Counted from the first letter of the stretch, positions 10,496-26,925 are shown. The stretch: DNA of 64,000 bases from Alphaproteobacteria bacterium (GCA_030428565.1 JAUIDR010000001.1:82431-146430); one strand, 5' to 3'. Notes: a model not told the origin generated them from the letters alone. Program-made: numbers and translations.

Positions 10496-12298
10496 GTGCC
10501 ATACGTAGTCGATTTCGCAGCAAAACCAAGCCTGCCGGCCATGTTTTTTGACGCCGCAAGCAACCGGGGCGATCATCCTTTCATGTGGGCTAAGCGCGAT
10601 AATGCTTGGCAAGCCATCTCCTACCGGCAAGCCACCGACAAAGTTCGCGCGCTCGCCAAAGCGCTTATTGCACGTGGGATCGAGCCTGGCGACCGCGTGG
10701 CTTTGGTATCGGAAAACCGGCCTGAATTTGCGCTGATCCACTTCGCGGTCATGAGCGCCGGCGCTGTAACCGTGCCCACCTACACCACCAATACCGTCGC
10801 GGATCACAAGCATATATTCTCGGATTCCGGGGCCAAGCTGGTGTTTGTTTCAACCAGGGCCCTTGCGTCTCGCGTTATACCGGCCGCGCAGGACTGCCCT
10901 GATATCACCGCCATAATCGGCATCGAAGAGTCCTTTGACGCCTCGCCGCTGGCAAGCAGCAACCTTGACGCTGAGATCGAGACAGGCCGCGCCCTGGAGG
11001 ACGAGTCCTTGGAAGCCCGCCTTGCACAGATCGACGTGAACGCGCTTGCGATCTTGATCTATACCTCAGGCACCGGCGGCGTACCCAAAGGCGTGATGCT
11101 CTCGCACGATGCCATCATGCTGAACTGCGAAGGGGCCTACGATGTCTTGAAGGACAGCTTTGACTTGGCCGACGAGACCTTTTTGAGCTTCTTGCCGCTC
11201 TCCCACTCCTATGAGCATATGGCGGGGCTGTGCTGGCCCATTTCGATGGGCGCGCAGATCTATTACGCCGAGGGCGCCGAAAAATTAGTCGCCAACATGG
11301 CTGAGGTGCGACCAACGGTTATGACCGCGGTTCCCCGCTTGTTCGAAGCCATGCGCGCCCGCGTCCTGAAGGGCATTGAGAGCGCCCCCAAGACCCGCCA
11401 GCGCCTGTTCTGGATGGCGGTCAACATCGGTCGCAAGCGCATTCTTGAGCCCGAAAATCTGACCTTAATGGAGCGCCTGCTGGACCCTTTGCTGGATCGC
11501 CTGGTGCGGGCCAAAGTTCGGGGCCGCTTCGGCGGGCGGCTAAAAGCGCTGGTCTCCGGCGGTGCCGCGCTGACACCTGATGTCGGCATCTTTTTCCAGG
11601 CGCTGGGCCTGACCCTGCTGCAAGGCTATGGCCAGACCGAGTCCGCGCCGCTTATCTCGGTCAACCGGCCCGAAATGCTCAAGATGGATACGGTTGGCCC
11701 GGCGTGTACCGGGGTCGAAATCAAAATCGCCCATGACGGTGAGATCTTGGCGCGCGGACGCAATATCATGATGGGCTATTGGAACATGCCCGAGGCGACA
11801 TCGCAGACCGTCGTCGACGGCTGGCTGCACACCGGTGATATCGGGAAAGTCGACGATCAAGGCCGCTTGATGATTACCGACCGCAAGAAGGATATCATCG
11901 TATTGTCGGGCGGTGATAACGTCTCACCTGCGCGCGTCGAGGGGATTTTGACCCTGGAGCCCGAGATCGCGCAAGCCATGGTTATTGGCGACAAGCGGCC
12001 CAACCTGGGCGCCCTGTTGGTACCGTCGGAAGACTTCATTGAAGACTGGGCCAAGTCCAACAGCAAACCCGCCGAGCTGCCCGCCCTTGCCGATGATCTG
12101 GACTTCATCAAGGCCATGAAGGCCGCTGTGGATCGCGCCAACAAGTCTTTGTCAAACATCGAAAAAGTCCGCCGAATCTGCATCGCTACCGAGGCTTTCA
12201 GCACAGAAAACGGCCAGATGACGGCTTCACTCAAGACGCGACGGCATATCGTCAAGGATCTCTATGCCGACAAGTTGGAGGCCCTATACACCAGCTAA
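10496..12298 (+). CDS. Long-chain fatty acid-CoA ligase (AMP-dependent synthetase)
   Basis: AMP-binding motif (YTSGTGGVPKGVMLSH), GYGQTE and DRKKDII motifs, about 600 aa. Confidence 0.75.
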   Translation: MPYVVDFAAKPSLPAMFFDAASNRGDHPFMWAKRDNAWQAISYRQATDKVRALAKALIARGIEPGDRVALVSENRPEFALIHFAVMSAGAVTVPTYTTNTVADHKHIFSDSGAKLVFVSTRALASRVIPAAQDCPDITAIIGIEESFDASPLASSNLDAEIETGRALEDESLEARLAQIDVNALAILIYTSGTGGVPKGVMLSHDAIMLNCEGAYDVLKDSFDLADETFLSFLPLSHSYEHMAGLCWPISMGAQIYYAEGAEKLVANMAEVRPTVMTAVPRLFEAMRARVLKGIESAPKTRQRLFWMAVNIGRKRILEPENLTLMERLLDPLLDRLVRAKVRGRFGGRLKALVSGGAALTPDVGIFFQALGLTLLQGYGQTESAPLISVNRPEMLKMDTVGPACTGVEIKIAHDGEILARGRNIMMGYWNMPEATSQTVVDGWLHTGDIGKVDDQGRLMITDRKKDIIVLSGGDNVSPARVEGILTLEPEIAQAMVIGDKRPNLGALLVPSEDFIEDWAKSNSKPAELPALADDLDFIKAMKAAVDRANKSLSNIEKVRRICIATEAFSTENGQMTASLKTRRHIVKDLYADKLEALYTS

Positions 12299-12493
12299 CA
12301 CCCACGTCCAGCAATTGAGGCATGGCTTAAGGGGGCTCCTCGGGCGGGGGCTTGGGGGCTGTGATAACCAGGTCGCTGGCCGCATTCGGTCGCTGGATTG
12401 CGCTTGCCAAGTCAGAAATTGGCCTACCAGGGCCACTTGCCATAAAAAGCTGCTTGCGCATCGCCGCTCTAGTGGCTATGCCAGCGCAACGGT

Positions 12494-12570
12494 CGGAGTG
12501 TAGCTCAGCCTGGTAGAGCACTGTCTTCGGGAGGCAGGGGTCGGAGGTTCGAATCCTCTCACTCCGACCA
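12494..12570 (+). tRNA. tRNA-Pro (anticodon CGG)
   Basis: A 77-nt cloverleaf folded by hand: acceptor CGGAGTG/CACTCCG, D-arm GCTC-AGCCTGGTA-GAGC, anticodon arm CTGTC-TTCGGGA-GGCAG (anticodon CGG), T-arm GGAGG-TTCGAAT-CCTCT, encoded CCA. The layout parallels E. coli proK. Confidence 0.8.
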
Positions 12571-12650
12571 GTCAAACGCGAGTTTGAGCGTAAGAGCTCC
12601 TCGCGGCCAAGAATTTCCCACATCAAGACCCCTTAAAGCGGTCGCGTTCG

Positions 12651-13205
12651 TCAGCTTAACTTGAGCGATGCAAAATCTTCAGCGGTCAAGGCAAAGCGCT
12701 CGTGATCGCGCCATGCGCCGTCGATAAACAGATATTTCGGTGAAAAACCTTCGTAGCGAAAGCCGAGCCGCTTGACCAAAGCGAGCGAACGGGCGTTGTT
12801 CGGTTGTACGTTGGCTTCGATGCGATGCAGCCCCAGGGTCTCAAAATAATAGCGCAAAGCAAGCTCTAGCCCTTCGCACATGATCCCCTGCCCGCTGGCG
12901 GGGCGGAAAGCGTAGAAACCTAGATAGCTACTCTGAAACAGCCCGCGCACGATTTGGCTGAAGTTAATGACGCCCGCCATCGCCAAGCTGTCGTTTTTGC
13001 GGATTAAAAAGCTGACTTGGTCGGGCTGACGCGCGCGTTCCAGAAATGATGCAAAAGCCTGCGTCGTACAGGGGGCCGCGACCCAGGGCGCATGGAGGTC
13101 AAGGCTCTGGCTCACGGCGGCCAGGAACTCAGTTCTGTCGTCGGTCTGAGGATACGCCAAGAAGCAGCGTGCCCCACGTGGCAGGGGTTGGCGGTCTTCG
13201 CCCAT
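12651..13205 (-). CDS. GNAT family N-acetyltransferase (RimJ/RimL-like)
   Basis: GNAT fold motifs and a C-terminal ..HRIEANVQPNNARSLALVKRLGFRYEG.. typical of ribosomal-protein acetyltransferase-like GNATs. Start is uncertain (13235 or 13205). Confidence 0.55.
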   Translation of the reverse strand: MGEDRQPLPRGARCFLAYPQTDDRTEFLAAVSQSLDLHAPWVAAPCTTQAFASFLERARQPDQVSFLIRKNDSLAMAGVINFSQIVRGLFQSSYLGFYAFRPASGQGIMCEGLELALRYYFETLGLHRIEANVQPNNARSLALVKRLGFRYEGFSPKYLFIDGAWRDHERFALTAEDFASLKLS

Positions 13206-13326
13206 GTCCTCACTCACCCAGACATTCCCATGCAAGCCGCGCTTTGCCCCGCGCCGCGCCAGTCATCAGAATTGGGATCATTATAAAAACCCATCGCCAG
13301 CAATCCGCGCACGCTCGCACTCAGCG

Positions 13327-13773
13327 CTAGAGCGCTTCGACCTCAACAACCGACGATCGCGCGGCTACAATCCGCACCTTTGTGCCTTCGTCCAGATCGG
13401 GCCCGCTGGCCGCCCACCTTGTGTCACCGACCCGCACCGCTCCGCGTCCATTGCGGATCGCTTCGCTGACCAGCGCTTGCTTACCGACGAGCGAACTAAC
13501 GCCCTGGTTCAGACTGGTTGACGGCCCTTTGTCGCGCGTTAGCAGACGACGTCCCACGAACAATCCCACCAGCGAAGCCAGGGAAAAGACCAGCGATTGC
13601 AGCAAGATCGACATATCTGGCATGACCACCATGGCCAGCGAGGTCAGCCCCGCGCCCAGCGCAAACCAAATAATGACGGTGGCGGGCAGCAAGATTTCTG
13701 CCACCCCCAACACCAACGCCAGCACCAGCCAGTGCCAGGCCGTCCACTGTGACCAATCGAGAAAATCCATCAT
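13327..13773 (-). CDS. NfeD family protein (short form, partner of the SPFH protein)
   Basis: N-terminal TM helices and a C-terminal OB-fold-like domain, immediately downstream of an SPFH gene in the same orientation. Confidence 0.6.
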   Translation of the reverse strand: MMDFLDWSQWTAWHWLVLALVLGVAEILLPATVIIWFALGAGLTSLAMVVMPDMSILLQSLVFSLASLVGLFVGRRLLTRDKGPSTSLNQGVSSLVGKQALVSEAIRNGRGAVRVGDTRWAASGPDLDEGTKVRIVAARSSVVEVEAL

Positions 13774-13895
13774 GGTAGGGGCTCCTTAAAATCGAGCTAA
13801 GGAATTGAAACGTATCATTTATACCACAGGCCTTGCCAGAGGCATGGTAGCGATGGCGGGCTTGGTTTGCATGGATTGTGCGGTCGCTTCCGGCG

Positions 13896-14864
13896 CTAGG
13901 ACTTGGCGCCCCATGGGCCATTGTCGCTCGCCCCTGCGCCGCCGCCAGGCATGTCCTTCATGGCTTCTTTGGCCAGCGAGGCGATACCGCCTACCGCGCC
14001 AATAACGCTCGACGCTTCTAGGGGCATATAGACCACCTTGGCATTGTCCGACGAGGCCATTTTCTCCAGCGCTTCGGTATAACGAGTGGCGACGAAATAG
14101 TTCACGGCTTGGACCGAACCCGACCCAATGGCATCGGAGACCATGCGCGTTGCTTCGGCTTCGGCCTGCGCCGAACGCTCGCGGGCTTCTGCATCCCGGA
14201 AAGCGGCTTCCTTGCGGCCTTCTGCCTCCAAAATCGCCGCCTGCTTCATGCCCTCAGCGCGCAGAATCTCGGCTTCACGGTCGCCTTGAGCGTCAAGGAT
14301 CTGTGCCCGCTTTTCGCGTTCGGCCTTCATCTGGCGGGCCATGGCATTGACCAAATCCTTGGGCGGTTCAATGTCCTTAATTTCGATCCGCGTGACCTTG
14401 ACACCCCAAGGATCAGTGGCGTGATCCACCACCGACAGCAAGCGCGCATTGATTTGATCGCGCTGAGATAGCAGTTCGTCCAAGTCCATTGATCCCATGA
14501 CGGTACGAATATTGGTCATGGTCAGATTAATGATTGCGGCCTGCAAGCTAGCAACCTCGTAGGAGGCCTTGGCGGCGTCCATGACCGCAAAAAACACAAC
14601 CCCATCTACCGCCACCATGGCGTTATCTTTGGTTATGATCTCCTGTCGGTCGATGTCCAAGACCTGCTCCATCATGTTGACCTTGCGGCCAACGCGATCG
14701 ATGAAGGGCACGATAATATTTAGGCCCGGCTCCAAGGTACCCCGGTAGCGACCAAAGCGCTCTAGCGTCCATTTATACCCCTGGGGAACCTGTTTGACGG
14801 TCGACCAAAGGGCGGCGACCACCAGGAAGAGAATGACAAACGGAAGGAGGAGCGCTTCTAACAT
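13896..14864 (-). CDS. SPFH/band-7 (stomatin-like) family protein
   Basis: N-terminal TM, an SPFH domain, and a coiled-coil Ala/Glu/Arg-rich region ([25 protein letters not shown]). Start at MLEALLL. Confidence 0.75.
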
Positions 14865-15075
14865 TTCAAATCCTTTAAGACAGAGCGGCGACGCGGCTAG
14901 GGTGGAGACCCTAGGCCGACTCTTGACTATTAAAATGGGCACGACGCATCGAATTTGCCACACTTAGTTACAGAATTAGCATCTTGCTACGACTGAATAT
15001 GGAACCCCCACGCTCTTCCAAAGCCTGAAACGCTCCTTGCGGCCCCGCATGGGTATGCTGGCGGGGATGGCGCGG

Positions 15076-15123
15076 GCCGTGAACCAAGCCGTGAACCAAG
15101 CTGTGAACAGGGCCGTCAACCGG
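15076..15123. repeat. Degenerate 12-bp tandem repeat (GCCGTGAACCAA, 4 copies)
   Basis: Read directly: gccgtgaaccaa / gccgtgaaccaa / gctgtgaacagg / gccgtcaaccgg. It lies between the sulfatase stop (15224) and the SPFH start (14864). Confidence 0.6.
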
Positions 15124-15223
15124 GCCGAGACCCAGGCGGTGGCTCGGGCTTGGCGCTCAACACCTGCATGGTCGGATGACCGAATTGATGGCTCAGCGAG
15201 CCTCGCCGATCACCAATTTTGCA

Positions 15224-16774
15224 CTAGGCCATCCCCACCTGTTTTTGCACCCCTTGCGCGCCATCGGGCCTGGTGTCGAGCATCGCCATCATCTCGGCGC
15301 GTCGTTCAGCATAAGCAGGATCGTCAAAACGATTTGTCAGCTCGTGCGGATCGCGCTCTAGATCATAGAGTTCACCGGCCCCAGATAGCCGATCCACGGT
15401 CATTTTCATCGTCTTGCAACGAACGGTGCGCAAGGAAAGGCCGACGCCTGCCCGGCTCGCCAACAGCTCCCATTCGTTCAGAGCAAAAGCGCGCGTCCCC
15501 TCACCTTCTATCACGGGGCGTAAGCTTTGCCCGTGCTGGGGCAACAGGCTATGCGTCCCGGCATAGTCGCAAAAAGTGGCCCCTAGGTCCAAGGTCGAGA
15601 CCGGCTCAAGCGAGCGCTTGCCTTCCGGCACACCAGGCCCGGCCCAAATCATCGGCACACGCAACAGGCCCTCATAGTGCATCGGCCCCTTGAGGACGAG
15701 GCCGTGATCACCCAGCCAGTCGCCGTGATCCGAGATGTAGACGACCAGGGTGTTTTCGCTCAAGCCTGCCTCATGTAAGGCGATCATCAAGCGACCGACC
15801 TGGTGGTCGATCAACGCAATTTGGCCATAGGTGTTGGCGATGATCTCGCGCAGTTGTTCGTCGCTCTGCTCGCTGATACGCGAGTAGTTCTTACGTATCT
15901 GCGCATGCTGCTTTTCGCCTTCGGGTTCGCGGGTCAAGACGGCCTCGTGCCACCAGGGCCGCCCTTCAAAGCTCCGTTCGCGATGGATCGGCAAATCAAC
16001 CTCGCTGGGGGCGTGCAGACGCGACCAAGGCTCGGGGCAATCAAAGGGGTGATGCGGATCGGGAAAGCTGACCCAAGCACAAAACGGAGCGTCGGCCTTG
16101 CGCTCGCCATCGCTGGCAATGCCCTGTTGTTTGATCCAATCGATCGCGCGGTCGGCGGTCCAACTGGAATTGTGCCAAGCAGTCGGCAACTTTGAATGCC
16201 AGGTCTGCGCTGCCCCCTTGGTATCGCCCGCATTTTCGCGATAGAGCGCGTTCTTATGATCGCCCCGCCCATCGGCGTAGAACCAGCGCTCGAAGTGCTG
16301 GCCGCGTGGCGGCTTTTCCGGCAAGAACCAATTGTGACCCACCAACATCATCTCGACGTGCTGAAACCCCATGTAGGGACCGTACCAATCCGGCCCATAG
16401 TCCGCCGATGATTGCAGGGATTCAGGCGTGCCGGTTGCTTCAAAGGTATGGTAGGTCGAAAAGTGCGCCTTGCCGAAGAAGGCGGTTTGATAGCCCGAGG
16501 CCGCCAAAGCGCCCGCAAAGCCGCGCTCGCCGATTTCAGGGGCAAGATCGATGCCGTTATCGTGGACCCCATGCGTTCGGCAAAGCTGGCCGGTCAGGAT
16601 CGAAGCCCGCGCGGGCTGGCACACGACGCACGGGGTGATGCAGGCCTCAAACCGTGTTCCGCGAGCGGCAAGTGCGTCCAGATGAGGCGTCTTTACCTTG
16701 CGCCCCATGTGGCCCAAGCAGTCGCCCCGCTGCTGGTCGGCTGAGATCAACAGGATATTGGGAGCGGTCGTCAT
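15224..16774 (-). CDS. Arylsulfatase-family (formylglycine-dependent) sulfatase
   Basis: N-terminal sulfatase signature with a C-x-P-x-R motif (CQPARASILTG), a metal-binding DHG, and about 516 aa. Confidence 0.75.
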   Translation of the reverse strand: MTTAPNILLISADQQRGDCLGHMGRKVKTPHLDALAARGTRFEACITPCVVCQPARASILTGQLCRTHGVHDNGIDLAPEIGERGFAGALAASGYQTAFFGKAHFSTYHTFEATGTPESLQSSADYGPDWYGPYMGFQHVEMMLVGHNWFLPEKPPRGQHFERWFYADGRGDHKNALYRENAGDTKGAAQTWHSKLPTAWHNSSWTADRAIDWIKQQGIASDGERKADAPFCAWVSFPDPHHPFDCPEPWSRLHAPSEVDLPIHRERSFEGRPWWHEAVLTREPEGEKQHAQIRKNYSRISEQSDEQLREIIANTYGQIALIDHQVGRLMIALHEAGLSENTLVVYISDHGDWLGDHGLVLKGPMHYEGLLRVPMIWAGPGVPEGKRSLEPVSTLDLGATFCDYAGTHSLLPQHGQSLRPVIEGEGTRAFALNEWELLASRAGVGLSLRTVRCKTMKMTVDRLSGAGELYDLERDPHELTNRFDDPAYAERRAEMMAMLDTRPDGAQGVQKQVGMA

Positions 16775-16819
16775 AGCGCATCCTTAACGAATTGAAAATT
16801 AGGACAATTATGGCTGGTA

Positions 16820-18454
16820 TCACTTGCCGGTTTTGGGCTCATGGTGACTTTCTGGTGGTGCGGCTGCCTCCGAACGCCAAAAGGCCATGGCCACCACCGC
16901 CACAGAAACGAGAATGAAGACCAGAGCAATCGGGCTGTGTAGCAAAAACAAGGCGTCGCCACCGGTTGCAGCAAAGGCTTGGCGGGCGGTATCTTCCAGA
17001 TTGCGCCCCAATATGAATGCGATGACAAAGGGCAGCACAGACATGTCGATGCGACGCATGAAATAGCCCAAGAACCCAAATCCGATGGCAAAGTAGACCC
17101 CAGCCATAGAGGTGAGCTGAACATAGATGGCTGTCAGCGTCAGCAGCAAAATCACCGGCAACAACAAATGCTTAGGAATGCGTGCCATCACGCCAACCGA
17201 GCGCATGAACAGCCCGCCTAGGCTCCAGTTCAGCGCGTTGGCCACCATCATTGCGGTGAAGATCCCAAACACCACCACCAGCTCAGGATTGACGCCTTCG
17301 CCCGTGACGCCGCCGCTCAACTTGAACACCGATGGACCGGGATTAAAACCGCCAATGCTATCCATCGCTAAGATCAAAAACACAGCCGCAGCATTGCCTG
17401 GGATGCCGAGCGATAGCACGGGTATGAGGTTGGCCCCCGATACAGCCGAATTGGCGGCTTCGGTCGCCGCGACGCCCTCAATGCGACCGCTGCCAAACCG
17501 GGCCTGTTCCGGATTTTTGCGGGCGTGGGAGCGTCGACCAGAGGCATAGCCAAGAGTGGCCGCCAGTGTGGAGCCAATGCCAGGTAGCGCCCCGATGGCG
17601 GTGCCAATCAAGGCTGAGGAGCGAATGTAAGGCCAACAGGCACGCACGTCCGCCCAACCAAAGCGATTGTCTGCACTGGCTTCCGCCTGCGATAGATCAC
17701 GGGCCTGTGGCCCGCTACGAAGCAGGTCTTCCAGCCCCTTGAAAACCTCGCCCAAAATGAGCACGCCCAAGACCGCCGTTACCACGGGGAAGCCATCCGC
17801 CAAGGCTTCTTGGCCCAGGGACAGGCGGGGGTAAAAATCCTCTCCCTTGCCGATGTAGGCGACTAACAGGCCCAAGCCTGCCGATATCAAGCCCTTGGCG
17901 GCTGAGCGCCCCACCACCGCCGCGATAAAGCTGAGCGATAAGATGATAAGCCCCGTCTTTTCAGGCAAGTCCAAGAAGCGCTCGACCATAATGGCCAGAA
18001 AGGGCGCTGAGGTGAACAAGACTAGATCCGAGAAAGTATCACCACTGGCAGAGGCGAAGTGTGCGGCCTTCAGCGCCTTACGGGCCTTCCCACGCTTGGC
18101 CATGGGATAGCCGTCGAAGGTGGTCAGCAGCGCATCCGGTGTCCCGGGGGTGTTGAACAAAATCGCTGGTACAGCGCCACCGATCGTGGCCCCCTTCATG
18201 ATGCCGATCAGGAAGCCCAGCACGGGCAGCAAGGCGTCTTGCTTAACCCCAAAGATCGAGATGAGGATCGGCAGCGCGATCGCCATCGCCATGGGCCCCG
18301 CGAGCCCCGGCGTCGCGCCTACGATGATGCCAATGCAAAAACCCGCCACGATCATTAACAGCGTGATACTGATCGGAATGCCGAATATTTCGAAGGCAGG
18401 GCCTACGGTAAAGACCGTTAGGACGCCCAGCCAAAGATGTTCCCAAAACCCCAC
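16820..18454 (-). CDS. tctA: Tripartite tricarboxylate transporter permease TctA
   Basis: Large polytopic TctA-family protein of about 540 aa. Forms a minus-strand operon with tctB and tctC. Confidence 0.8.
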   Translation of the reverse strand: MGFWEHLWLGVLTVFTVGPAFEIFGIPISITLLMIVAGFCIGIIVGATPGLAGPMAMAIALPILISIFGVKQDALLPVLGFLIGIMKGATIGGAVPAILFNTPGTPDALLTTFDGYPMAKRGKARKALKAAHFASASGDTFSDLVLFTSAPFLAIMVERFLDLPEKTGLIILSLSFIAAVVGRSAAKGLISAGLGLLVAYIGKGEDFYPRLSLGQEALADGFPVVTAVLGVLILGEVFKGLEDLLRSGPQARDLSQAEASADNRFGWADVRACWPYIRSSALIGTAIGALPGIGSTLAATLGYASGRRSHARKNPEQARFGSGRIEGVAATEAANSAVSGANLIPVLSLGIPGNAAAVFLILAMDSIGGFNPGPSVFKLSGGVTGEGVNPELVVVFGIFTAMMVANALNWSLGGLFMRSVGVMARIPKHLLLPVILLLTLTAIYVQLTSMAGVYFAIGFGFLGYFMRRIDMSVLPFVIAFILGRNLEDTARQAFAATGGDALFLLHSPIALVFILVSVAVVAMAFWRSEAAAPPESHHEPKTGK

Positions 18455-19020
18455 TACAAGTCCCCATTTGGCGGCAACAACAGATCGTCAAAGGGCAAAT
18501 CATAGACCAACGCGATGATCAAAGGAGCCAAAACAGCCACCAGAAATGCGCGCACGGTCAAGCGACGCTCAACGGCGACAATGCTGACAAAAATCAATAC
18601 AAAGCCGCCACTCAAAAAGCCCAGATATTTCCAGGGCAAGGTATCGCGCAAATTGCGATAGCTCTCCGCCTCCCCGGCGAGCGTCACCGCCAAGGGACCG
18701 ATCCAACGCATGAGCAGAAAGGCCACAAACAGCAGCCCAAAACTGAGCCCCGCAAAACGCAAGCTAGACCAGCCCAGGGGCATAGGCTCGCCGCGCCCCA
18801 AGAGAGCATTGATCGTGACCAAGCCGCCCCCCAGTGCGATCAACACAGCTGCCACGCTGGGCGCCAAGGCATCGCCGATCACCCAGCGCCGGCGCACTTT
18901 CTCAATCAGGCCCGTGTCGGTGTCCAGCGGCACCCAGATCAACAAAACAAACAGCGCAAAAGCCAGAAAGGCGAGCCCTAAGACAAGCTCGCCTTTGTTG
19001 TTGTGCTTCATGACAAGCAA
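18454..19020 (-). CDS. tctB: Tripartite tricarboxylate transporter small subunit TctB
   Basis: Small 4-TM protein between tctC and tctA; its stop overlaps the tctA start by 1 nt. Confidence 0.55.
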   Translation of the reverse strand: MLVMKHNNKGELVLGLAFLAFALFVLLIWVPLDTDTGLIEKVRRRWVIGDALAPSVAAVLIALGGGLVTINALLGRGEPMPLGWSSLRFAGLSFGLLFVAFLLMRWIGPLAVTLAGEAESYRNLRDTLPWKYLGFLSGGFVLIFVSIVAVERRLTVRAFLVAVLAPLIIALVYDLPFDDLLLPPNGDL

Positions 19021-19030
19021 CCGTGGCCGG

Positions 19031-19990
19031 TTATTCAGACGCTGCGCTCAACAGACCCTGCGCGCCGTTCGAAGCGCTGGAAAGCAGGGTGTCGAATTCT
19101 GCACCGCTGATGGTCTTGGCCCCCGCGAATGCCTTGGCGATAATGCCGCCGGCCTTGGTGCTAGGGTCGCTAACCACTTCGATAATGGCCTCGCTCAAGG
19201 CTGTACGTGCATCGTCCGACAGACCAGCTGGCGCGACGAAAGCAAAATAGCCATCGGCATTGAAATCAACGCCGTAGGCACTCATGGTGGCCGCGTCCGG
19301 CGACTGGGCTAGTGGTACCGACATAGCAGAGGCCAGGTTTACCAAGTCACCCGAAGCAACGCCCTTGGCTTGAATACCCGCCATAAAGCCCAGATCCATG
19401 TCACCCGCTTGTACGCCGTTCATGACCGCTTTACCGCCACGCACCTGCACTGTGTTGAACGCGACGGCGTTGGCCTCACCCAACAGGTAGGCCAAGTCAG
19501 ACAGTTTGGGCGACATGGTGCCAAAGCGAATAGCTTGCCCGCCCTTGGCCGCTTCAATCACCTCTGCAAAACTCGTCCAGCCCTTTTCGGCCTTGGCGAC
19601 GATGCCCATTTGAAAGCCCGCGACCGTTGTCAGCGCGGTAAAGTCCTCCAAGGCGACGGGGTTTCCGGCTGCAACGCGGTTATAGCCCAAGGTCTCGGTC
19701 ACGATCATCGCGATTGCAGTGCCGTCTGCGGGCTCCTTCGCCAAAGCAACCGCTGCGTTGAGGCCGCCTTTTCCTGTGACCTGTTCAGGCAAGATTGACC
19801 AGCCCTTGCGCTTTTCGATCTCTTCGGCGGTTGCCCGCGCAATGGTATCCGCGCCGCCGCCAGCGGCAAAAGCGATAATCAATTTGATCGGTCCGCTGGG
19901 TTGCCATTGCGCCTGCGCGGTTCCTAAGCCAGCGGCGCTCAGACCAACCGCCAGCAAAGCCGTGCCCGCAAACTTTGCCAATTTTTGCAT
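19031..19990 (-). CDS. tctC: Tripartite tricarboxylate transporter substrate-binding protein TctC (Bug family)
   Basis: Signal peptide followed by a Bug/TctC-like periplasmic binding fold of about 320 aa. First gene of the tctCBA operon. Confidence 0.75.
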   Translation of the reverse strand: MQKLAKFAGTALLAVGLSAAGLGTAQAQWQPSGPIKLIIAFAAGGGADTIARATAEEIEKRKGWSILPEQVTGKGGLNAAVALAKEPADGTAIAMIVTETLGYNRVAAGNPVALEDFTALTTVAGFQMGIVAKAEKGWTSFAEVIEAAKGGQAIRFGTMSPKLSDLAYLLGEANAVAFNTVQVRGGKAVMNGVQAGDMDLGFMAGIQAKGVASGDLVNLASAMSVPLAQSPDAATMSAYGVDFNADGYFAFVAPAGLSDDARTALSEAIIEVVSDPSTKAGGIIAKAFAGAKTISGAEFDTLLSSASNGAQGLLSAASE

Positions 19991-20035
19991 TTTCTTCCTC
20001 CCTTGCTTTTGTCCTTTGACCTTGACAGAAACTTA

Positions 20036-20047
20036 TTGACCGGTCAA
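20036..20047. promoter_or_regulatory. Perfect 12-bp palindrome TTGACCGGTCAA in the tctC/marR divergent promoter region; candidate MarR operator
   Basis: Read directly. TTGAC half-sites also occur at 20016-20027 (tttgaccttgaca). The palindrome sits 10-20 nt upstream of the first possible marR start codon. Confidence 0.3.
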
Positions 20048-20056
20048 ATTAATTTA

Positions 20057-20668
20057 ATGAATAAGCAATTTCTTCCCCGAGCGCCGCAAATGTCTGCTAA
20101 AGACGATGGGGTCTCACCAAGCATAGACACTCATATGAGCGAGCGTTCAGCGTCCAATAAAAACCGATCAGACACCGCCAAGGCCGCCGCTTCGGGCGGG
20201 CAATCGGCCGAGGCTGCCTCGAGCGACGATGTTTCTCAGTCATTCCGAGACATGTTGACGGTGCGCCTGCCGCACATCCAAGCCAGCCTCAACGCGCAAG
20301 CGTCGGCAATATTAGCGCGCGAAGCAGGCCTGTCGCTCATCCAATGGCGCATCTTGTTCTTGCTGGTTCGTATGGGCCCCGCCACGGCCACACAAATCAA
20401 CGAGGTCTCCGCCATGGATCCCGGCCTGCTTAGCCGCAAGATCAAGGCCATGGCAGATAGCGACATGCTGCAAGTGCAGCCCTCTGTTGAAGACCACCGC
20501 CGCAAATTGCTGTCGATAACGCCCTTGGGGCGCCGTCTGTTTGAAAAGGCTCTGCCCGCGATGCGCCAGCGCCAAGAGCGTATCCGCAGCTTTTTACCGC
20601 CGGAAGATATGCTGCGATTTCTCGACTATCTGGACCAACTCAGCACGCTCGCTGAAGAAGACATGTAG
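20057..20668 (+). CDS. MarR family transcriptional regulator
   Basis: Winged-HTH MarR core (LSLIQWRILFLLVRMGPATATQINEVSAMDPGLLSRKIKAMADSDMLQVQPSVEDHRRKLLSITPLGRRLFE). Start is ambiguous: 20057, 20093 or 20135. Lies divergent to tctC and 48 nt upstream of the second sulfatase. Confidence 0.65.
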   Translation: MNKQFLPRAPQMSAKDDGVSPSIDTHMSERSASNKNRSDTAKAAASGGQSAEAASSDDVSQSFRDMLTVRLPHIQASLNAQASAILAREAGLSLIQWRILFLLVRMGPATATQINEVSAMDPGLLSRKIKAMADSDMLQVQPSVEDHRRKLLSITPLGRRLFEKALPAMRQRQERIRSFLPPEDMLRFLDYLDQLSTLAEEDM

Positions 20669-20716
20669 TCCCCTGCGGCCCGCCGCGCCGCGCAGTGGCA
20701 AAATCGAAGATCGACA

Positions 20717-22168
20717 ATGACAAACAATCTCTTGGTCATCATGTCTGATGAACATCAGGCCCGCGCACTCGGCTGCGCTGGGCATGATTTCGTCCAGACC
20801 CCCAATCTTGACGCTCTAGCCGCCGACGGCACCCGATTTGCGCGCGCTTATACCCCCTCGCCCATCTGTGTTCCGGCGCGCGCTAGCTTTGCCTCCGGCC
20901 TTTATCCGCATCAAAATCGTCTCTGGGATAATGCGATGCCTTATACGGGTATGCAGCCCGGATGGGGTCACGCTTTGCAGGCTAAGTCGGTACCGGTGGA
21001 ATCCATCGGTAAGCTGCACTACCGCGCCAAAGAAGACCCCGTCGGTTTTGATGCAGAGCACCTGCCGATGATGGTTGTCGGCGGTGTCGGCATGGTTTGG
21101 GCTTCGATCCGAAAAGAGGACGAACGGGTCACGCGCGACAAACGCATGCTGGGCGATTACATCGGCCCCGGCACTTCGGCTTACACGCAATATGATGCCT
21201 CTGTCGTTGCGCGAACCCTGCAATGGCTTCAGGAGCGCGCGGCACAGCCATCCGACCAACCCTGGTGTCTGTACGTCGGCTTGGTCGCGCCTCACTTCCC
21301 TTTAGTCGTGCCGCAAGAATACTATGACCTCTACCCGCTTGACAGCCTGCCAGAGGTAAAGCTGCACCCGTCAAGCGGCTACCAGCGTCACCCCTGGGTC
21401 GAAAAACAGAACGCCTTTATGAACAGCGAGGCGCGCTTTCACGATCCCGAAGAGCGTCTACGGGCCATGGCCAGCTACTACGGGCTCTGCACCTGGCTGG
21501 ATCACAACGTCGGGCAGATTCTAAACGCCCTCGATGCGAGCCCCTTCGCTGAGACCACCAATATCGTTTATACCAGCGACCACGGCGACAACCTTGGCGC
21601 GCGCGGCCTTTGGGGCAAATCCAATATGTATGAGGAGAGCGTCGCGGTGCCCATGATCGCGCGCGGACCGGGGTTTGCGCCAGGAAAGGTCTGCCATACG
21701 CCGGTCAGCTTGCTGGATCTGTCCACGACGATTGCCGAGCATTTTGAAGCCAAGCTGGCCGATGATCGTCCCGGCGAGAGCCTTTATGAGCTAGCCCAGG
21801 CCCCCGACGACCAAGAGCGTGCAGTCTTCAGCGAATACCACGCTGCCGGAGCGGTCTCTGGCGCCTTCATGCTCCGCAAGGGCCGTTGGAAACTGATCTA
21901 CTATGTCGGCTTTGAGCCCGAGCTCTTCGACTTAGAGAACGACCCTGAAGAACTGGAAGACCTTGTTCGCCTTGATGGGGCCGGCCAAGATGCGCACAGA
22001 AAGATCTTGGCCAAGATGATCGCCGAACTTCGCACAATCTGCGATCCAGAAGCCACCGACGCGCAAGCGCACGCCGACCAAGCGGCGCTGATAGAAAGCT
22101 TCGGCGGGCGCGACGCCGCCCTCAAGCTGGGTGCTTCTGGCGCGACCCCACCCCCCAGCCTTGGCTAG
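20717..22168 (+). CDS. Arylsulfatase-family sulfatase (choline-sulfatase-like architecture)
   Basis: N-terminus MTNNLLVIMSDEHQ...CVPARASFASG (C-x-P-x-R), SDHGDNLGARGLW, and a C-terminal W-K-x-I-Y...LFDLENDPEEL motif resembling BetC-type choline sulfatases. Confidence 0.75.
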   Translation: MTNNLLVIMSDEHQARALGCAGHDFVQTPNLDALAADGTRFARAYTPSPICVPARASFASGLYPHQNRLWDNAMPYTGMQPGWGHALQAKSVPVESIGKLHYRAKEDPVGFDAEHLPMMVVGGVGMVWASIRKEDERVTRDKRMLGDYIGPGTSAYTQYDASVVARTLQWLQERAAQPSDQPWCLYVGLVAPHFPLVVPQEYYDLYPLDSLPEVKLHPSSGYQRHPWVEKQNAFMNSEARFHDPEERLRAMASYYGLCTWLDHNVGQILNALDASPFAETTNIVYTSDHGDNLGARGLWGKSNMYEESVAVPMIARGPGFAPGKVCHTPVSLLDLSTTIAEHFEAKLADDRPGESLYELAQAPDDQERAVFSEYHAAGAVSGAFMLRKGRWKLIYYVGFEPELFDLENDPEELEDLVRLDGAGQDAHRKILAKMIAELRTICDPEATDAQAHADQAALIESFGGRDAALKLGASGATPPPSLG

Positions 22169-22237
22169 AGCGTGCGGCCTTGGCACAGAGCCAGCCTCGC
22201 GCTCTAACGTCTTAATTTTTGAGCGAAAACTCCAGCT

Positions 22238-25200
22238 TTAGGCCGCCAAAGCCTCCAATCGTTCCTTGACCTTGTCATAGGCACGTTGCTTAACGGGGCC
22301 AAAACCTTTGATCTCTAGGATAAGGCCAAAGCCCACCAGCAGGTCCGATAATTGCTGTTGGTCTTCGCAGGCCGCCGCGCGCGCGATCAGGGCCTCGGTG
22401 AGCTGGATTAAACGGCGCTCAATTTGGCGCTCAACGCTTCGGCCAAATGGATCGAATGCGGTGCCGCGCAGTCCTTTACCCCGCTTGAGCAGGGCCAACA
22501 AGGGTAAGATCCAGGGGCCAAATTGCTGCTTGCGCGGTTCGCCGGTCTGCGGGTCGATTGACGATATCAGCGGCGGCGCCAGGTTCACGCTGATCTTGGC
22601 ACCTTGCTTGAATTGGTCCTCGATTTCCGCCTTGGTATCCGGATGGCTCAAGAGGCGGGCCACTTCATATTCGTCCTTATAGGCCATGACTTTGTACAAC
22701 GCGCGCGCCGCCTGCATGACCTGGCCCTCGCTCAGCGCCGGATTGGCTTGCAGGCCGTCAATTTGGCGCATGAAGCGCTGCGCGTAAGCCGCGGACTGGT
22801 AGGCCGTCAACTCCTGGCTAAAGTGCTGCTTGAGCGCGTCCAAGCTCAGTTCTTCGGGGCGATGGGCTTCTTCATGCAAGCCCGCGGCCTCCAGCGCTTT
22901 GTCGCGATCGGCATAGAGCCAACGCCCCCAACGGAAGGCCGCGACGTTCATCGCAACCGAGACGCCGTTAAGCTCAAGGGCTCGTTCGATGGCCGCCGCG
23001 CTCATCGTTAAGCGTCCAGCTTGGTAGGCCATACCCACCACCATGAAATTGACCCCCATGCCGTCAGCCAACAGCGCATGCGCCAGCGCGACGACATCTT
23101 CGCAACGGATGTTTTGCTTGGGTACAATTCGGCTCAGGCGATCCAGCAATGCTTGGGTCTGCGGGCGCGCATTGGGATTGACCGCGAAGGCTGCCAGCGG
23201 CTCGACGTGCGCGTTGGCCATGACCTGTGCATCGGTTCTAAGCGCGGTCAAGCTGGCGTCACTGACACCGGTTACCAGGTCGCAAGCGATTAGCGTATCC
23301 GCGCTTCCGTCGGGCAAACGCGCAGGGCGATTTTCGAGCGTCTGGCCTGAGAGTTGGATTTGACTGGCCACCGCGCCGTTCTTTTGCGCCAACCCGGCTT
23401 GATCCAGGGTCAAAGCGTTTTGCCCCTGCAGCCGCGCGGCCATGGTCAACACCGCCCCGACGGTGACAACCCCGGTTCCGCCCACGCCGGTGACAAGCAG
23501 GCGCGCCTTGATGGGCAGCTCGGGCTCGTCTAACAGCTTCATATCGGGCGGGGCAATCAGATTGCTACGCGAGCCCAACAAGGGCTCCTTGTCATGCTCA
23601 ATGGTCAAAAAACTGGGACAAAACCCTTTTAGGCAAGAAAAGTCTTTGTTGCAGGCGGTTTGATCAATCTCTCGTTTGGTGCCAAAGATGCTGTCTTTGG
23701 GCTTGATTGCAACGCAATTCGATTTAAGCCCGCAATCGCCACAACCCTCGCAGACGCGGCTCGCAATCATGACTCGCTTGTGGGGATTGGGAAATTTGCC
23801 CCGCTTGCGACGACGGCGTTTTTCCGCAGCGCAAGTCTGGACATAGATGATAGCCGTTGTGCCCTCGACTTCGCGCAGTTCGCGCTGCACCTCGTCCAGG
23901 TCTTTGCGTTCGTACAGCGGCACTTCGCTTGGAAGGCGCCCCGCAATCCCGTCGATTTCGGCGGGATCAGCGACCACCACCACTTTGGCCGCCCCCTCGG
24001 CTAAGATTTGTGCCGCCATGGACCAAGGCTTGGAGTGGCTCTCCAAGGGCTGGCCGCCGGTCATGGCCACCGCATCGTTGTAGAGGATTTTAAAGGTGAT
24101 ATTGACGCCCGCCATAATGCAGGCGCGAATAGCCAGGAAACCCGAGTGCTGATAGGTGCCATCGCCCATGTTTTGAAACATGTGCTTTTTGTCCGAAAAT
24201 GGCGCACGCCCAAGCCAGGAGCCGCCTTCGCCCCCCATTTGCGCGCACCATTGGTGCGTCTCAGGGCTGACAATGGCCGAAATTGTATGACAACCGATGC
24301 CGGAAATTGCCGTCGAACCATCCGGTAGCTTGGTTGAAGTATTGTGCGGGCAGCCCGAGCAATACCAAGGCACGCGCTGAGCTGGCTGGCTTTCGTTGAG
24401 CGCCAGCACCGGGTGCGCGTGCACCGCAGCAGCGGTCTTTCCTGCAGGGGCCATATTCAGAGCCTCAAGGCGATCCAACAAGGCATCAACGATCAAGTGC
24501 GGGCTCAATTCGCCGAACGAGGGTAAAATGCGCCGCCCTTGGGGATTGAATTTGCCGACCAAACGCGGCCGCTCATCCTCGGCCAGATCGAACAAGACCC
24601 GCGCTGTTTGGGTTTCGACAAATTCCTTCTTGTCTTCAAGAATCAGCAATTCTTCATAGCCGCGCGCAAAGGCTGCCAGACCGCTGGGTTCAAGCGGCCA
24701 GGTCATATTGACCTTGAAGATACCAATACCCGCGTCCTGGTCCAGCGCCAGCTCTTCCAACGCTTCCATCAAATCGGGATAGGCGCGCCCCACCACGACG
24801 ATGCCCAGACGCTTGGTCTTGGGGGTCCAGGTGGGACGGTTGAGGCGATTGGCTTTGGCGTAGGCCAGCACCGCAGGCAAACGCTCTTCGTTGAGGCAGC
24901 GCTCAACCTCCAAGAAGGGCTGAAAGCCTGGCTTGGCGTGCAGGCCATTTTTGCTGGCAGCTGGCTCTAGCGGTGCGAATTCGGGGCGCAAATGATCCAG
25001 GTCCAGCGTTCCAGCGCTATCGGCCACATCCGCGACCAGCTTGATGGCCGCCGGCACCCCCGCATAGCGTGACAGCGCGATTGCGTGCAGCCCCAAAGGC
25101 ACAAGCTCATGGATCGAGGCGGGAAATAAGACCGGCACCATGGCCGCCATCAGCGTTTGATCGGATTGATGCGCCAAGGTCGAAGATTTTCCGCTGGCAT

Positions 25201-26767: not shown

Positions 26768-26925
26768 TCGAAACTCCCTCCAAAGCAAAGGTATTGGGCT
26801 GCAAGTGGTCCAACTTGCATCGCGCCATAGACTTGCTCATAGCACCTTAGCCGCCAGCGCCCTACCCTGCTATCCGGCAAATCCACCAAGCGGAACCGCT
26901 ACAACCTGTCCCAAATGGATAGACA

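Follow-up and report, generated by a model that had tools for sequence, protein, structure and literature searches.

The question raised by this locus was which compound is handled by a six-gene unit in which two sulfatase genes stand beside a tripartite (TTT) transporter and a MarR-family regulator. The unit occupies positions 15224-22168 of the window, a 64-kb stretch of alphaproteobacterial DNA that was analysed as a whole, with the genes for TctC, a TctB-like protein, TctA and the sulfatase Sulf1 on the minus strand and those for MarR and the second sulfatase, Sulf2, on the plus strand (Table 1). The gene content and coordinates proposed by an earlier sequence-only reading were borne out by the ORFs and the Pfam matches, and the motifs CQPAR in Sulf1 and CVPAR in Sulf2 were confirmed in the translated ORFs. 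The spacings of 45 nt between the tctA stop and the Sulf1 start, and of 48 nt between the marR stop and the Sulf2 start, were also as described. Promoter and terminator scans by consensus gave no signal above chance. As judged from the sequences, the unit most likely imports a sulfated organic acid and strips its sulfate groups inside the cell.

Table 1. Features of the six-gene unit, with positions counted from the first letter of the window.
Feature	Position	Strand	Basis
Sulf1, S1 sulfatase, last gene of the tctCBA operon	15224-16774	-	516 aa; Pfam Sulfatase (PF00884) 126.3 bits against a cut-off of 25, residues 5-406; C52-Q-P-A-R56
TctA, large membrane subunit of the TTT system	16820-18454	-	Pfam TctA (PF01970) 328.9 bits, full length (profile positions 1-423 of 423)
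TctB-like small membrane subunit, divergent	18454-19020	-	188-aa hydrophobic ORF; position
TctC, periplasmic solute-binding protein of the TTT system	19031-19990	-	Pfam TctC (PF03401) 40.4 bits (cut-off 27)
TTGACCGGTCAA palindrome, probable MarR operator	20036-20047		Conserved in the tctC-marR divergent promoter region
MarR-family regulator, divergent from tctC	20090-20668 (mechanical ORF from 19985)	+	Pfam MarR_2 37.8 bits
Sulf2, S1 sulfatase	20717-22168	+	483 aa; Pfam Sulfatase 135.2 bits; C51-V-P-A-R55

The transporter was considered with regard to each of its three components. TctC is the specificity determinant of the TTT system, and TTT binding proteins bind carboxylates. The N-terminus of TctC, MQKLAKFAGTALLAVGLSAAGLGTAQA, was a hydrophobic leader ending in AQA and resembled a Sec signal peptide. 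The PDB matches of the protein were structures of the Bug family (Bug/TTT binding proteins) only, and these were distant, with a best E-value of 2.6e-9. The start codon of tctA shared 1 nt with the stop codon of the gene preceding it, and the same overlap was found in the orthologous loci. Of the tctCBA set named previously, tctC and tctA were supported by Pfam, whereas the family membership of the supposed tctB was not: Pfam TctB gave no match in the 188-aa ORF, and hhalign of the protein against canonical TctB returned a probability of 0.4%. The protein contained four to five hydrophobic segments, and both its size and its position fitted tctB. Its gene was located between tctC and tctA in every cassette (41-72% identity), its C-terminal motif DLPFDDLLLPPNGD was invariant, and a faint precomputed match to PF07331 (TctB) was present in one ortholog.

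Both sulfatases were found to carry an SGSH_C domain (Pfam). Sulf1 contained the maturation motif C52-Q-P-A-R56-A-S-I-L-T-G, and residues D13, K102, H104, D349, H350 and K362 were invariant in an alignment with 20 orthologs. Because the catalytic D13 sits at the very N-terminus, Sulf1 has no signal peptide. Its closest solved relatives were the exo-2S-iota-carrageenan sulfatase 6pt4 (E 1e-43) and the Agrobacterium and Silicibacter arylsulfatases 4uph and 4upi (E ~1e-40), and no close characterised relative was present among the solved structures. The orthologs were 63-89% identical, those of 70-89% being abundant in marine Alphaproteobacteria. Sulf1 and Sulf2 were predicted to be cytoplasmic formylglycine-type S1 sulfatases; 'arylsulfatase', the name given to both in the sequence-only reading, is a provisional label. 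Phosphoethanolamine transferase-like enzymes lacking the formylglycine cysteine, which the sequence-only reading had named as a possible contrary outcome, were rejected: the MCR/EptA models scored ~20 bits against cut-offs above 500, and both proteins possessed the CxPxR motif together with the catalytic Lys, His and Asp residues. Since the two sulfatases lack a signal peptide and TctC has one, import would come first and desulfation would follow in the cytoplasm.

Sulf2 was compared with choline sulfatase (BetC). The whole protein was indeed nearest to the choline sulfatase 6fny in the PDB (215 bits, residues 4-421), and C51-V-P-A-R55, N72, K99 and H101 aligned to C54, N75, K102 and H104 of BetC. 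The BetC-like C-terminal architecture suggested earlier was not supported, however, as profile positions 455-500 of TIGR03417 (the BetC C-tail) were unaligned in Sulf2 and no C-terminal choline-sulfatase domain was reported for it in the Pfam search. The score against TIGR03417 was 263.6 bits, with a curated cut-off of 433.45. In BetC, choline is clamped between Trp129 and His145, with a gate formed by Asn146 and Asp500 and an aromatic tunnel of Tyr123, Trp142 and Trp143 (PMC9063841). Sulf2 retained the clamp tryptophan as W128, but His145 was replaced by R143 and Asn146 by M144 in 65 of 65 aligned sequences (that of the window and 64 orthologs); Tyr123 was replaced by Val, and the positions of Trp142 and Trp143 were variable. 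By its solved relatives Sulf2 was nearest to SulfAtlas S1_12, yet it failed the S1_12 signature. The bet operon context (betI, betB, betA) was not found, the neighbours of Sulf2 being marR, tctCBA and a gene of the indolepyruvate:ferredoxin oxidoreductase family, and no bet-type dehydrogenase or other non-cassette gene recurred at related loci. The identity of Sulf2 as a choline sulfatase was rejected on the score below the curated cut-off, the invariant Arg in the clamp, the unmatched C-tail and the missing bet genes. The invariant Arg143 in place of the cation-binding His145 fits an anionic leaving group, such as would be presented by a sulfated carboxylate.

It is highly improbable that choline-O-sulfate or a different osmolyte sulfate ester is the substrate of the locus, or that the locus scavenges sulfur in the manner of the Pseudomonas ats arylsulfatase system, even with choline sulfatase as the best curated and structural match of Sulf2 and with the same likeness seen in the sequence-only reading. 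Besides the differences in Sulf2 itself, betA, betB and betI were not found beside the cassette in related loci, and choline sulfate has no carboxylate for a TTT binding protein to take. Seawater contains ~28 mM sulfate, so that sulfur scavenging is unnecessary there, and the regulator is of the MarR type, not of the CysB/Cbl type.

The adjacency of the genes was followed across genomes by using a set of Sulf1 orthologs of at least 60% identity. The set comprised 128 distinct loci from Rhodobacterales, Rhizobiales, SAR116, Geminicoccaceae, the gammaproteobacterial Granulosicoccaceae and marine metagenomes. TctA was encoded directly upstream of Sulf1 at 101 of the 115 distinct loci having at least 1.7 kb of upstream sequence. 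Where at least 5.4 kb was available (93 loci), TctA, TctB, TctC and Sulf2 were all present at 81, and 75 had a detectable MarR in addition. The synteny check proposed earlier thus showed that the tctCBA-sulfatase and marR-sulfatase arrangement was kept across orders and in two classes of Proteobacteria, while the genes flanking the cassette were unrelated and differed between loci. Confinement of the adjacency to this genome, the other contrary outcome named in the sequence-only reading, was thereby rejected. The arrangement is far beyond chance, and the cassette is small, mobile and highly conserved. The carriers included the Roseobacter group, and many of them were host-associated judging by isolate names; by the same names alone, many of the carrier MAGs seemed to originate from sponges, corals and seaweed-rich habitats.

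Such habitats would suit a substrate released from the sulfated polysaccharides of algae or animals, either a small oligosaccharide fragment or a sulfated sugar acid (e.g. of the uronate or aldonate type), which the TTT system would bring in and which would lose its sulfate in the cytoplasm before being degraded as a sugar acid. Uronates are carboxylates, the closest solved relative of Sulf1 is a carrageenan sulfatase, and GAG sulfatases were also among the matches. We considered this substrate unlikely. The similarity to 6pt4 was at the family level only (roughly 30% identity, estimated from the alignment), no glycoside hydrolase, polysaccharide lyase, sugar kinase or KDG-pathway gene recurred beside the cassette in ~110 contexts, and the enzymes attached to it at some loci, which are described below, are either homogentisate-pathway enzymes or have 2-hydroxy or 2-oxo acids as substrates.

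The regulator matched the Pfam MarR domain with 34.5 bits besides MarR_2. Its best NCBIfam match was HpaR, with 42 bits and thus below the 121-bit cut-off, and the HpaR structure 7el2 was among its PDB matches. The in-frame ATG codons at 20090 and 20135 were more plausible starts than that of the mechanical ORF; the orthologs were 152-165 aa long. A 12-bp palindrome TTGAC-NN-GTCAA was located between marR and tctC and occurred only once in the window. Of 61 orthologous marR-tctC intergenic regions, 48 had an exact copy of its core TGAC-NN-GTCA and the others a copy with 1-2 mismatches, the consensus over these regions being gTTGACagGTCAAC. The palindrome is likely the MarR operator, and its conservation in the divergent promoter region supports the co-regulation of both transcription units by the MarR protein that had been suggested before.

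Further hints, on the substrate and on sulfatase maturation, were obtained from genes that accompany the cassette at related loci. An S4-like MBL hydrolase was added at about three quarters of them; this protein was RNase-Z/phosphodiesterase-like, and its best solved relative was annotated as an arylsulfatase. FGE genes were found inside or beside the cassette at six related loci (L125, L015, L110, L131, L056 and L105), those of L125 scoring 243 and 235 bits against PF03781; they lend indirect support to a putative conversion of the motif Cys to formylglycine. No FGE, MBL or homogentisate gene was present in the 64-kb window. An FMN-dependent L-2-hydroxyacid dehydrogenase, which passed the NCBIfam cut-off of the L-lactate dehydrogenase subfamily, was encoded immediately 3' of Sulf1 in L125 and L144, and a GlcD-like FAD-dependent D-2-hydroxyacid dehydrogenase gene overlapped the 3' end of Sulf2 in L131. 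An Iso_dh-family dehydrogenase was co-operonic after Sulf1 in L038 and L046, and a gene for a TPP-dependent 2-oxoacid enzyme overlapped the 3' end of the MBL gene in L098. The indolepyruvate:ferredoxin oxidoreductase-family gene adjoined the cassette in the window and in L005, and independently in L099. Bona fide genes for 4-hydroxyphenylpyruvate dioxygenase (HPPD) or the homogentisate pathway directly adjoined it in L079 and L068/L070/L096 and, as a complete pathway, in L049; L164 had fragments of them.

The enzymes attached to cassette variants thus either take 2-hydroxy or 2-oxo acids as substrates or are part of the homogentisate pathway, and they point weakly to a sulfated 2-hydroxy acid, possibly derived from tyrosine. 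These hints come from about 12 of ~110 contexts, as most loci, the window included, have the core genes alone. The HPPD and Iso_dh associations were noticed post hoc, and their support was modest after correction for multiple testing; in an independent set of metagenomes they reappeared once only, in L096, which was arranged as L068/L070. The 'sulfated carboxylate' of the sequence-only reading would agree with the TTT binding protein, with the invariant Arg of Sulf2 and with these 2-hydroxy/2-oxo-acid enzymes. The FMN- and FAD-dependent lactate-type dehydrogenases, Iso_dh and the TPP enzymes are as compatible with sulfated hydroxy acids of the aliphatic kind (lactate, glycolate, malate, glycerate) as with aromatic ones.

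Accessory genes were also considered in relation to phosphorus. Both proteins could be formylglycine-dependent phosphonate-monoester/phosphodiester hydrolases (SulfAtlas S1_0-like), in which case an anionic organophosphorus ester would serve the cassette as a source of phosphorus or carbon. Sulf1 and Sulf2 matched the PehA phosphoric/sulfuric ester hydrolase model (E 1e-46 and 1e-39) as well as the PMH structures 2vqr, 2w8s and 4upk, the MBL protein is phosphodiesterase-like, and a calcineurin-like phosphoesterase was an accessory gene in L007, L085 and L017. However, the PehA scores (NF045661; 159.1 and 136 bits) were below those of the arylsulfatase and choline-sulfatase models and far from the cut-off of 900, an SdsA1-type alkylsulfatase joined the cassette in L143, and the best solved relative of the MBL protein again spoke for sulfate esters. 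Control would be exerted by MarR, the cassette being without a Pho-type regulator. Hence, a role in organophosphorus use was regarded as very unlikely.

Similarly, one or both enzymes might cleave an N-sulfo (sulfamate) or another unusual S-linked group on a carboxylate. A 502-aa alphaproteobacterial formylglycine sulfatase from Shinella, 30% identical to BetC, hydrolyses acesulfame, and its substrate was not predictable from sequence (PMC11500405); the clade is therefore functionally plastic. Compared by description, this enzyme resembles those of the cassette in being alphaproteobacterial, cytoplasmic and BetC-like and in having its FGE encoded separately, but it is plasmid-borne, lies beside an amidase, a LysR regulator and TauE with neither TTT nor MarR, and acts on a xenobiotic sulfamate (PMC11500405). 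The SGSH_C domain shared by both window sulfatases could be taken in favour of such a substrate, yet it is a general C-terminal sulfatase domain, and no amidase or other sulfamate-pathway gene was present in the cassettes. A sulfamate substrate is hardly to be expected.

For the sulfate ester route, the following mechanism was proposed. Its steps were drawn from family knowledge. The analysis itself showed the gene identities, the signals for a cytoplasmic or periplasmic location, the conserved synteny and operator, the linkage to FGE genes at related loci and the difference of Sulf2 from choline sulfatase; the direction of regulation, the class of the substrate and the transport of the ester in its intact form were inferred, as was all function, from sequence and genome comparison. 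When no substrate is present, a MarR dimer on TTGAC-NN-GTCAA would repress both tctC-tctB'-tctA-sulf1 and marR-sulf2, and either the substrate or its desulfated product would release it. A carboxylate-bearing sulfate ester would be captured by periplasmic TctC and imported intact by TctA and the small subunit. An FGE encoded elsewhere in the genome would mature the two cytoplasmic formylglycine sulfatases, which would remove sulfate from two chemically different positions or from two related esters. The desulfated acid would then enter metabolism via enzymes that are also encoded elsewhere; a sulfate exporter was absent from the cassette gene set.

The general mechanism of MarR control, TTT import and cytoplasmic desulfation was considered highly probable. 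The whole explanation, by which the cassette is a self-contained catabolic unit under MarR control that serves a small anionic sulfate ester, is probable to a lesser degree. The assignment of the substrate class as an O-sulfated 2-hydroxy-carboxylic acid, possibly aromatic and tyrosine-derived, is tentative; sulfates of 4-hydroxyphenyl-lactate, -pyruvate and -acetate, or tyrosine O-sulfate, are possibly examples. A further reading is more doubtful still. By this, the cassette would be a dedicated catabolic route for an unrecognised, widely available marine dissolved metabolite, for instance a doubly O-sulfated aromatic 2-hydroxy acid or a compound of the tyrosine-O-sulfate type, from which Sulf1, Sulf2 and the S4-like MBL enzyme would each take off a chemically distinct sulfate (phenolic or alkyl). 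If that were true, TctC would be the first TTT binding protein specific for a sulfate ester.

No publication on a TTT-sulfatase cassette was found in the literature, and no described TTT system was found coupled to sulfatases. The known TTT systems adjoin, typically, catabolic genes for their carboxylate ligand, as with citrate (TctCBA), terephthalate (TphC/TpiBA), adipate (AdpC), Asp/Glu (BugD/BugE) and sulfolactate (SlcHFG). The cassette shares their three components and the gene order tctC, small subunit, tctA, but its TctC is distant from every solved binding protein and its small subunit is without detectable TctB similarity. The betICBA/BetC system of Ensifer meliloti (S1_12) likewise joins a cytoplasmic Cys-type formylglycine sulfatase to an imported small sulfate ester and a substrate-responsive repressor, and its sulfatase is the nearest relative of Sulf2 among solved structures, the formylglycine Cys, Asn75, Lys102, His104 and Trp129 being kept. 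It differs in having bet genes, an ABC or BCCT transporter and one sulfatase, whereas the cassette has a TTT system and two S1 sulfatases, often three sulfatase-like hydrolases. The Pseudomonas atsRBCA/AtsA locus, too, combines an S1 sulfatase with a transporter of its own and deals with small sulfate esters of the aromatic kind; that system uses an ABC transporter under sulfate-starvation control and supplies sulfur, in contrast to the TTT transporter and MarR of the cassette. As the cassette hosts live in sulfate-replete seawater, use of the ester as a carbon source is implied.

The 'Dct-3' island of SAR11 bacteria showed a parallel in gene content, since a secondary transporter dependent on a periplasmic binding protein there adjoins two sulfatases, which were left unexplained by the authors, and the 4-hydroxyphenylpyruvate/homogentisate pathway (PMC11796062). 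This corresponds to the HPPD adjacency in L049, L079, L068/L070 and L164, but the SAR11 transporter is of the TRAP type, not TTT (PMC11796062).

In genomes of the Roseobacter group, Rhizobiales, SAR116 and Granulosicoccaceae, the cassette brings together high-affinity secondary transport and predicted desulfation in the cytoplasm. Sulfate esters make up a large, poorly mapped share of marine dissolved organic sulfur and carbon, and bacteria are known to use them by way of polysaccharide-utilisation loci that have secreted sulfatases or by the choline-sulfate bet pathway. The MarR protein with its conserved putative operator would constitute a ready-made biosensor for the ligand. Were that ligand identified, a new metabolite serving as currency between heterotrophs and eukaryotic hosts or phytoplankton would have a name, the first sulfate-ester-binding TTT receptor would be at hand, and two large uncharacterised groups of S1 sulfatases would gain a function.

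The genes of the cassette were identified from the ORF table and translations together with Pfam and NCBIfam scans, which bore out the gene list of the sequence-only reading. On the minus strand, the periplasmic binding protein (TctC), a TctB-like small membrane subunit (TctB') and the large membrane subunit (TctA) of a tripartite tricarboxylate transporter (TTT) were followed by an S1 formylglycine-type sulfatase (Sulf1). A MarR regulator and a second S1 sulfatase (Sulf2) diverged from them. The tctA start overlapped the preceding stop codon by 1 base, and gaps of 45 and 48 nt separated tctA from Sulf1 and marR from Sulf2, respectively. The N-terminus of TctC, MQKLAKFAGTALLAVGLSAAGLGTAQA, resembled a Sec leader. 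In both sulfatases the catalytic Asp was located at residue 11-13, leaving no space for a signal peptide, so the two enzymes are predicted from sequence to be cytoplasmic.

Features of the cassette, its surroundings and related loci (window coordinates unless a locus is named)
Feature	Position or locus	Strand	Remarks
NfeD-like and SPFH/band-7 genes	13327-14963	-	usual membrane-scaffold pair, directly downstream of cassette
12-bp tandem repeat, consensus CGGGCCGTGAAC	15073-15127		4.6 copies, 79% matches; intergenic, between Sulf1 3' end and SPFH gene
Sulf1, 516 aa	15224-16774	-	PF00884 126 bits; motif C52-QPAR
TctA	16820-18454	-	PF01970 329 bits
TctB-like ORF (TctB'), 188 aa, hydrophobic	18454-19020	-	
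TctC	19031-19990	-	PF03401 40.4 bits, cut-off 27
MarR regulator	within ORF 19985-20668	+	
Perfect 12-bp palindrome TTGACCGGTCAA	20036-20047		tctC-marR intergenic region
Sulf2, 483 aa	20717-22168	+	PF00884 135 bits; motif C51-VPAR
Indolepyruvate:ferredoxin oxidoreductase (IOR)-family gene, fused, 1139 aa	22238-25657	-	NF009589 1311 bits; convergent to Sulf2
Small FAH-family hydrolase	26066-26788	-	comes after IOR-family gene
Operon of tctCBA, Sulf1, FMN L-2-hydroxyacid dehydrogenase, FGE, Sulf2	L125 (TARA scaffold), 11466-16078		second FGE convergent; no MarR
Sulf1 homolog between LysR regulator and a different TctC gene	L141, 8764-12566		
Second, canonical tctCBA, family III CoA-transferase, short citrate-synthase-like gene, TauE exporter	L163 (metagenomic contig), 9777-15526		directly downstream of cassette
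FMN L-2-hydroxyacid dehydrogenase	L125, L144		over NCBIfam L-lactate-DH subfamily cut-off
GlcD-like FAD dehydrogenase	L131		
Iso_dh-family dehydrogenase	L038, L046		
TPP enzyme	L098		
IOR-family oxidoreductase	window and L005; independently L099		
True 4-hydroxyphenylpyruvate dioxygenase (HPPD)	L079; L068/L070/L096		
Whole homogentisate operon	L049		
HgmA and GST fragments	L164		

Both sulfatases carried the CxPxR motif; the catalytic Asp, Lys and His were invariant among Sulf1 orthologs, and the catalytic residues of Sulf2 aligned to those of the choline sulfatase BetC. An identity as phosphoethanolamine-transferase-like enzymes lacking the formylglycine cysteine, which the sequence-only reading had named as a refuting outcome, was rejected, as the MCR/EptA-type models scored about 20 bits with cut-offs that exceed 500. 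An assignment as phosphonate monoester hydrolases was likewise rejected (PehA model, 159 and 136 bits; cut-off, 900). Since the window held no gene for a formylglycine-generating enzyme (FGE), we infer that maturation of Sulf1 and Sulf2 relies on an FGE encoded elsewhere in the genome. At related loci, an FGE gene (PF03781, 243 bits) was located between Sulf1 and Sulf2 in L125, and FGE homologs adjoined the cassette in L015, L110, L131, L056 and L105.

Overall, Sulf2 was nearest to choline sulfatase (6fny, 215 bits; TIGR03417, 263.6 bits), but the curated TIGR03417 cut-off is 433 bits and choline sulfatase was rejected as its identity. The BetC-like C-terminal architecture proposed earlier was not supported, as the BetC-specific C-tail was left unaligned. 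In ligand-bound BetC structures, the quaternary ammonium of choline is clamped by Trp129 and His145, and Asn146 and Asp500 form a gate whose lining is the aromatic tunnel of Tyr123, Trp142 and Trp143 (PMC9063841). These residues were mapped to Sulf2 via an HMMER alignment and checked in the window protein and 64 orthologs. The clamp Trp was retained as W128, while His145 was replaced by Arg143 and Asn146 by Met144 in 65 of 65 sequences; Val stood in place of Tyr123, and the Trp142/Trp143 pair aligned with variable positions. An invariant Arg in place of the cation-pi partner points to an anionic leaving group, which would fit a carboxylate-bearing substrate brought by a TTT binding protein.

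The name tctB given to the small membrane gene calls for correction. Its position, size and hydrophobic segments fitted TctB, and a single ortholog gave a faint PF07331 match. The window ORF itself had no Pfam match, and a profile of ten orthologs showed no similarity to canonical TctB by hhalign. In the alignment of these proteins (A2), soluble motifs were invariant, namely RLLRDTxPWKY and, at the C-terminus, DLPFDDLLLPPNGD, and the small subunit of the cassette may represent a separate family.

Homologs of Sulf1 numbered roughly 4,000, and the best 120 (71-100% identity) came from marine Alphaproteobacteria wherever a source was named. Genomic contexts were collected by exact-protein look-ups, a scan of species-representative genomes and a metagenome scan, and were analysed by tblastn with the six window proteins. 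This yielded 128 distinct loci in which the Sulf1 ortholog was full-length, with an identity of 60% or more. TctA was encoded immediately upstream of Sulf1 in 101 of the 115 loci with at least 1.7 kb of upstream sequence. Among the 93 loci with at least 5.4 kb upstream, TctA, TctB', TctC and Sulf2 were all present in 81, confirming that the adjacency of transporter and sulfatase is kept in related genomes; MarR, detected with the window sequence, completed the set in 75. The carriers included Rhodobacterales (Thalassococcus lentus, Shimia ponticola, Cognatishimia coralii, Marimonas lutisalis), Rhizobiales (Hoeflea, Ahrensia, Stappiaceae), SAR116/Puniceispirillaceae, Geminicoccaceae, the gammaproteobacterial Granulosicoccaceae and one Chromatiales MAG.

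The flanks of the cassette varied between genomes, and any of the flanking genes of the window were found only in L005, an alphaproteobacterial MAG with a Sulf1 82% identical to that of the window, and L006. As synteny was conserved while the flanks varied, we conclude that the cassette is mobile and selectively maintained. Homologs of Sulf1 at 51-54% identity (L133, L136, L140, L141, L146) were situated outside any cassette and mark the edge of the orthologous group; the arrangement in L141 may represent a sister system built on a different TTT receptor.

A pattern search confirmed the palindrome TTGACCGGTCAA of the tctC-marR intergenic region, missed by the inverted-repeat finder, and its occurrence in the 64-kb window was single. 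TGAC-NN-GTCA was exact in 48 of 61 orthologous intergenic regions, with all taxa represented, and the remaining 13 contained TTGAC-NN-GTCAA with one or two mismatches (consensus gTTGACagGTCAAC). By our own estimate, about 0.004 occurrences per region would be expected by chance (eight fixed bases, ~280 bp). MarR operators classically take this form, with a conserved dyad lying between the regulator gene and an operon transcribed away from it. The conserved palindrome thus supports the earlier proposal of two units co-regulated by MarR and is its probable operator; as the TTGAC half-sites look like -35 elements, occupancy would block both promoters. Scans of 14900-22400 for consensus sigma-70 promoters and intrinsic terminators gave nothing over shuffled expectation. 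The Rfam scan of 14000-23000 returned no RNA family, which leaves no riboswitch explanation.

The top curated match of the MarR protein was HpaR, a homoprotocatechuate regulator, with a score under the cut-off. In-frame ATGs were present at 20057, 20090 and 20135; the true start is uncertain, 20090 or 20135 being more plausible than the mechanical ORF start at 19985. Compared with orthologs of 152-165 aa, the window protein had a Ser/Ala-rich N-terminal extension of ~25-40 residues (20090-20240).

The neighbouring window genes were mostly housekeeping or unrelated (rpsD, plsX, LeuA-like, NfeD/SPFH pair, GNAT, acyl-CoA ligase-like, M3 peptidase). The NfeD/SPFH pair was common to the window, L005 and L006 and had no connection to the cassette finding. 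L099, an unrelated locus, likewise had an IOR-family gene (38% identity), there convergent to Sulf1; arylpyruvates may connect these neighbours functionally with the cassette, or the arrangement may be coincidental.

In 62 of 84 loci, a gene for a 282-aa metallo-beta-lactamase-fold (MBL) hydrolase was translationally coupled downstream of Sulf2. The protein was RNase-Z-like, its closest solved relative was 8gyg, annotated as an arylsulfatase (E 3.5e-19), and its traits matched SulfAtlas family S4, a relative of tRNase Z. Rarer inserts were an alpha/beta hydrolase (L009, L149), a calcineurin-like phosphoesterase (L007, L085, L017) and an SdsA1-type (S3) alkylsulfatase (L143). In the window, searches found no accessory MBL gene, which was also missing from its nearest relative L005, and no FGE, homogentisate-pathway, Iso_dh, alpha/beta hydrolase, FMN_dh, GlcD, TPP enzyme or Metallophos gene.

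Apart from the MBL hydrolase and the rarer inserts, all enzymes that were operon-linked or lay immediately next to the cassette (Table) are predicted to act on 2-hydroxy or 2-oxo acids. Among the natural variants, L125 is the most informative guide to candidate substrates. A similar grouping occurs in a SAR11 island, where a transporter, there of the TRAP type, lies with the 4-hydroxyphenylpyruvate pathway and two sulfatases that its authors left unexplained (PMC11796062).

These hints came from about 12 of roughly 110 contexts and were spotted post hoc. The metagenome scan served as a pre-specified replication set for the HPPD and Iso_dh associations: HPPD was replicated only in L096, in an arrangement identical to L068/L070, and Iso_dh was not replicated. 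Both hints were therefore downgraded to suggestive. Homogentisate gene fragments were found in one of four further loci looked up. By a rough estimate of our own, chance is unlikely to place a single-locus pathway immediately adjacent in four independent contexts; allowing for the many families able to recur, the HPPD/homogentisate adjacency is only modestly significant. A broad enrichment of aromatic catabolism was rejected, since the neighbour count was near expectation, calculated on the rough assumption that such pathways occupy ~1% of genes in such genomes; only the immediate HPPD/homogentisate adjacency stood out. The dehydrogenases suit aliphatic sulfated hydroxy acids equally well.

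We proposed that MarR bound to the palindrome represses both divergent units until a ligand lifts the repression. A periplasmic ester would then be captured by TctC and imported through TctA and the small subunit. Distinct sulfates would be removed in the cytoplasm by Sulf1 and Sulf2, joined in most genomes by the S4-like enzyme. The resulting acid would be oxidised to a 2-oxo acid, followed by decarboxylation or ring cleavage, by enzymes encoded elsewhere. Because seawater is replete with sulfate, the benefit would be carbon and not sulfur. The core cassette contained no sulfate exporter; the TauE protein encoded near it in L163 could export sulfate or sulfite freed in the cytoplasm. The general mechanism, MarR-controlled TTT import followed by cytoplasmic desulfation, is considered quite probable. 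As the substrate hints were few and post hoc, and the dehydrogenases fit aliphatic acids too, the leading substrate class, an O-sulfated 2-hydroxy or 2-oxo carboxylic acid, possibly tyrosine-derived, is put forward tentatively.

All parts of the cassette belong to known families. As in the BetC/bet and Pseudomonas ats systems, a regulator responding to the substrate would govern the import of a small ester and its subsequent cytoplasmic desulfation. Unlike in those systems, the transporter is a TTT system with a divergent small membrane subunit, two divergent S1 sulfatases are usually accompanied by an S4-like hydrolase, and the operator is conserved. No description of a TTT-sulfatase system was found in the searched literature, and the cassette would gain in interest if its ligand turned out to be an abundant marine metabolite that has gone unrecognised.
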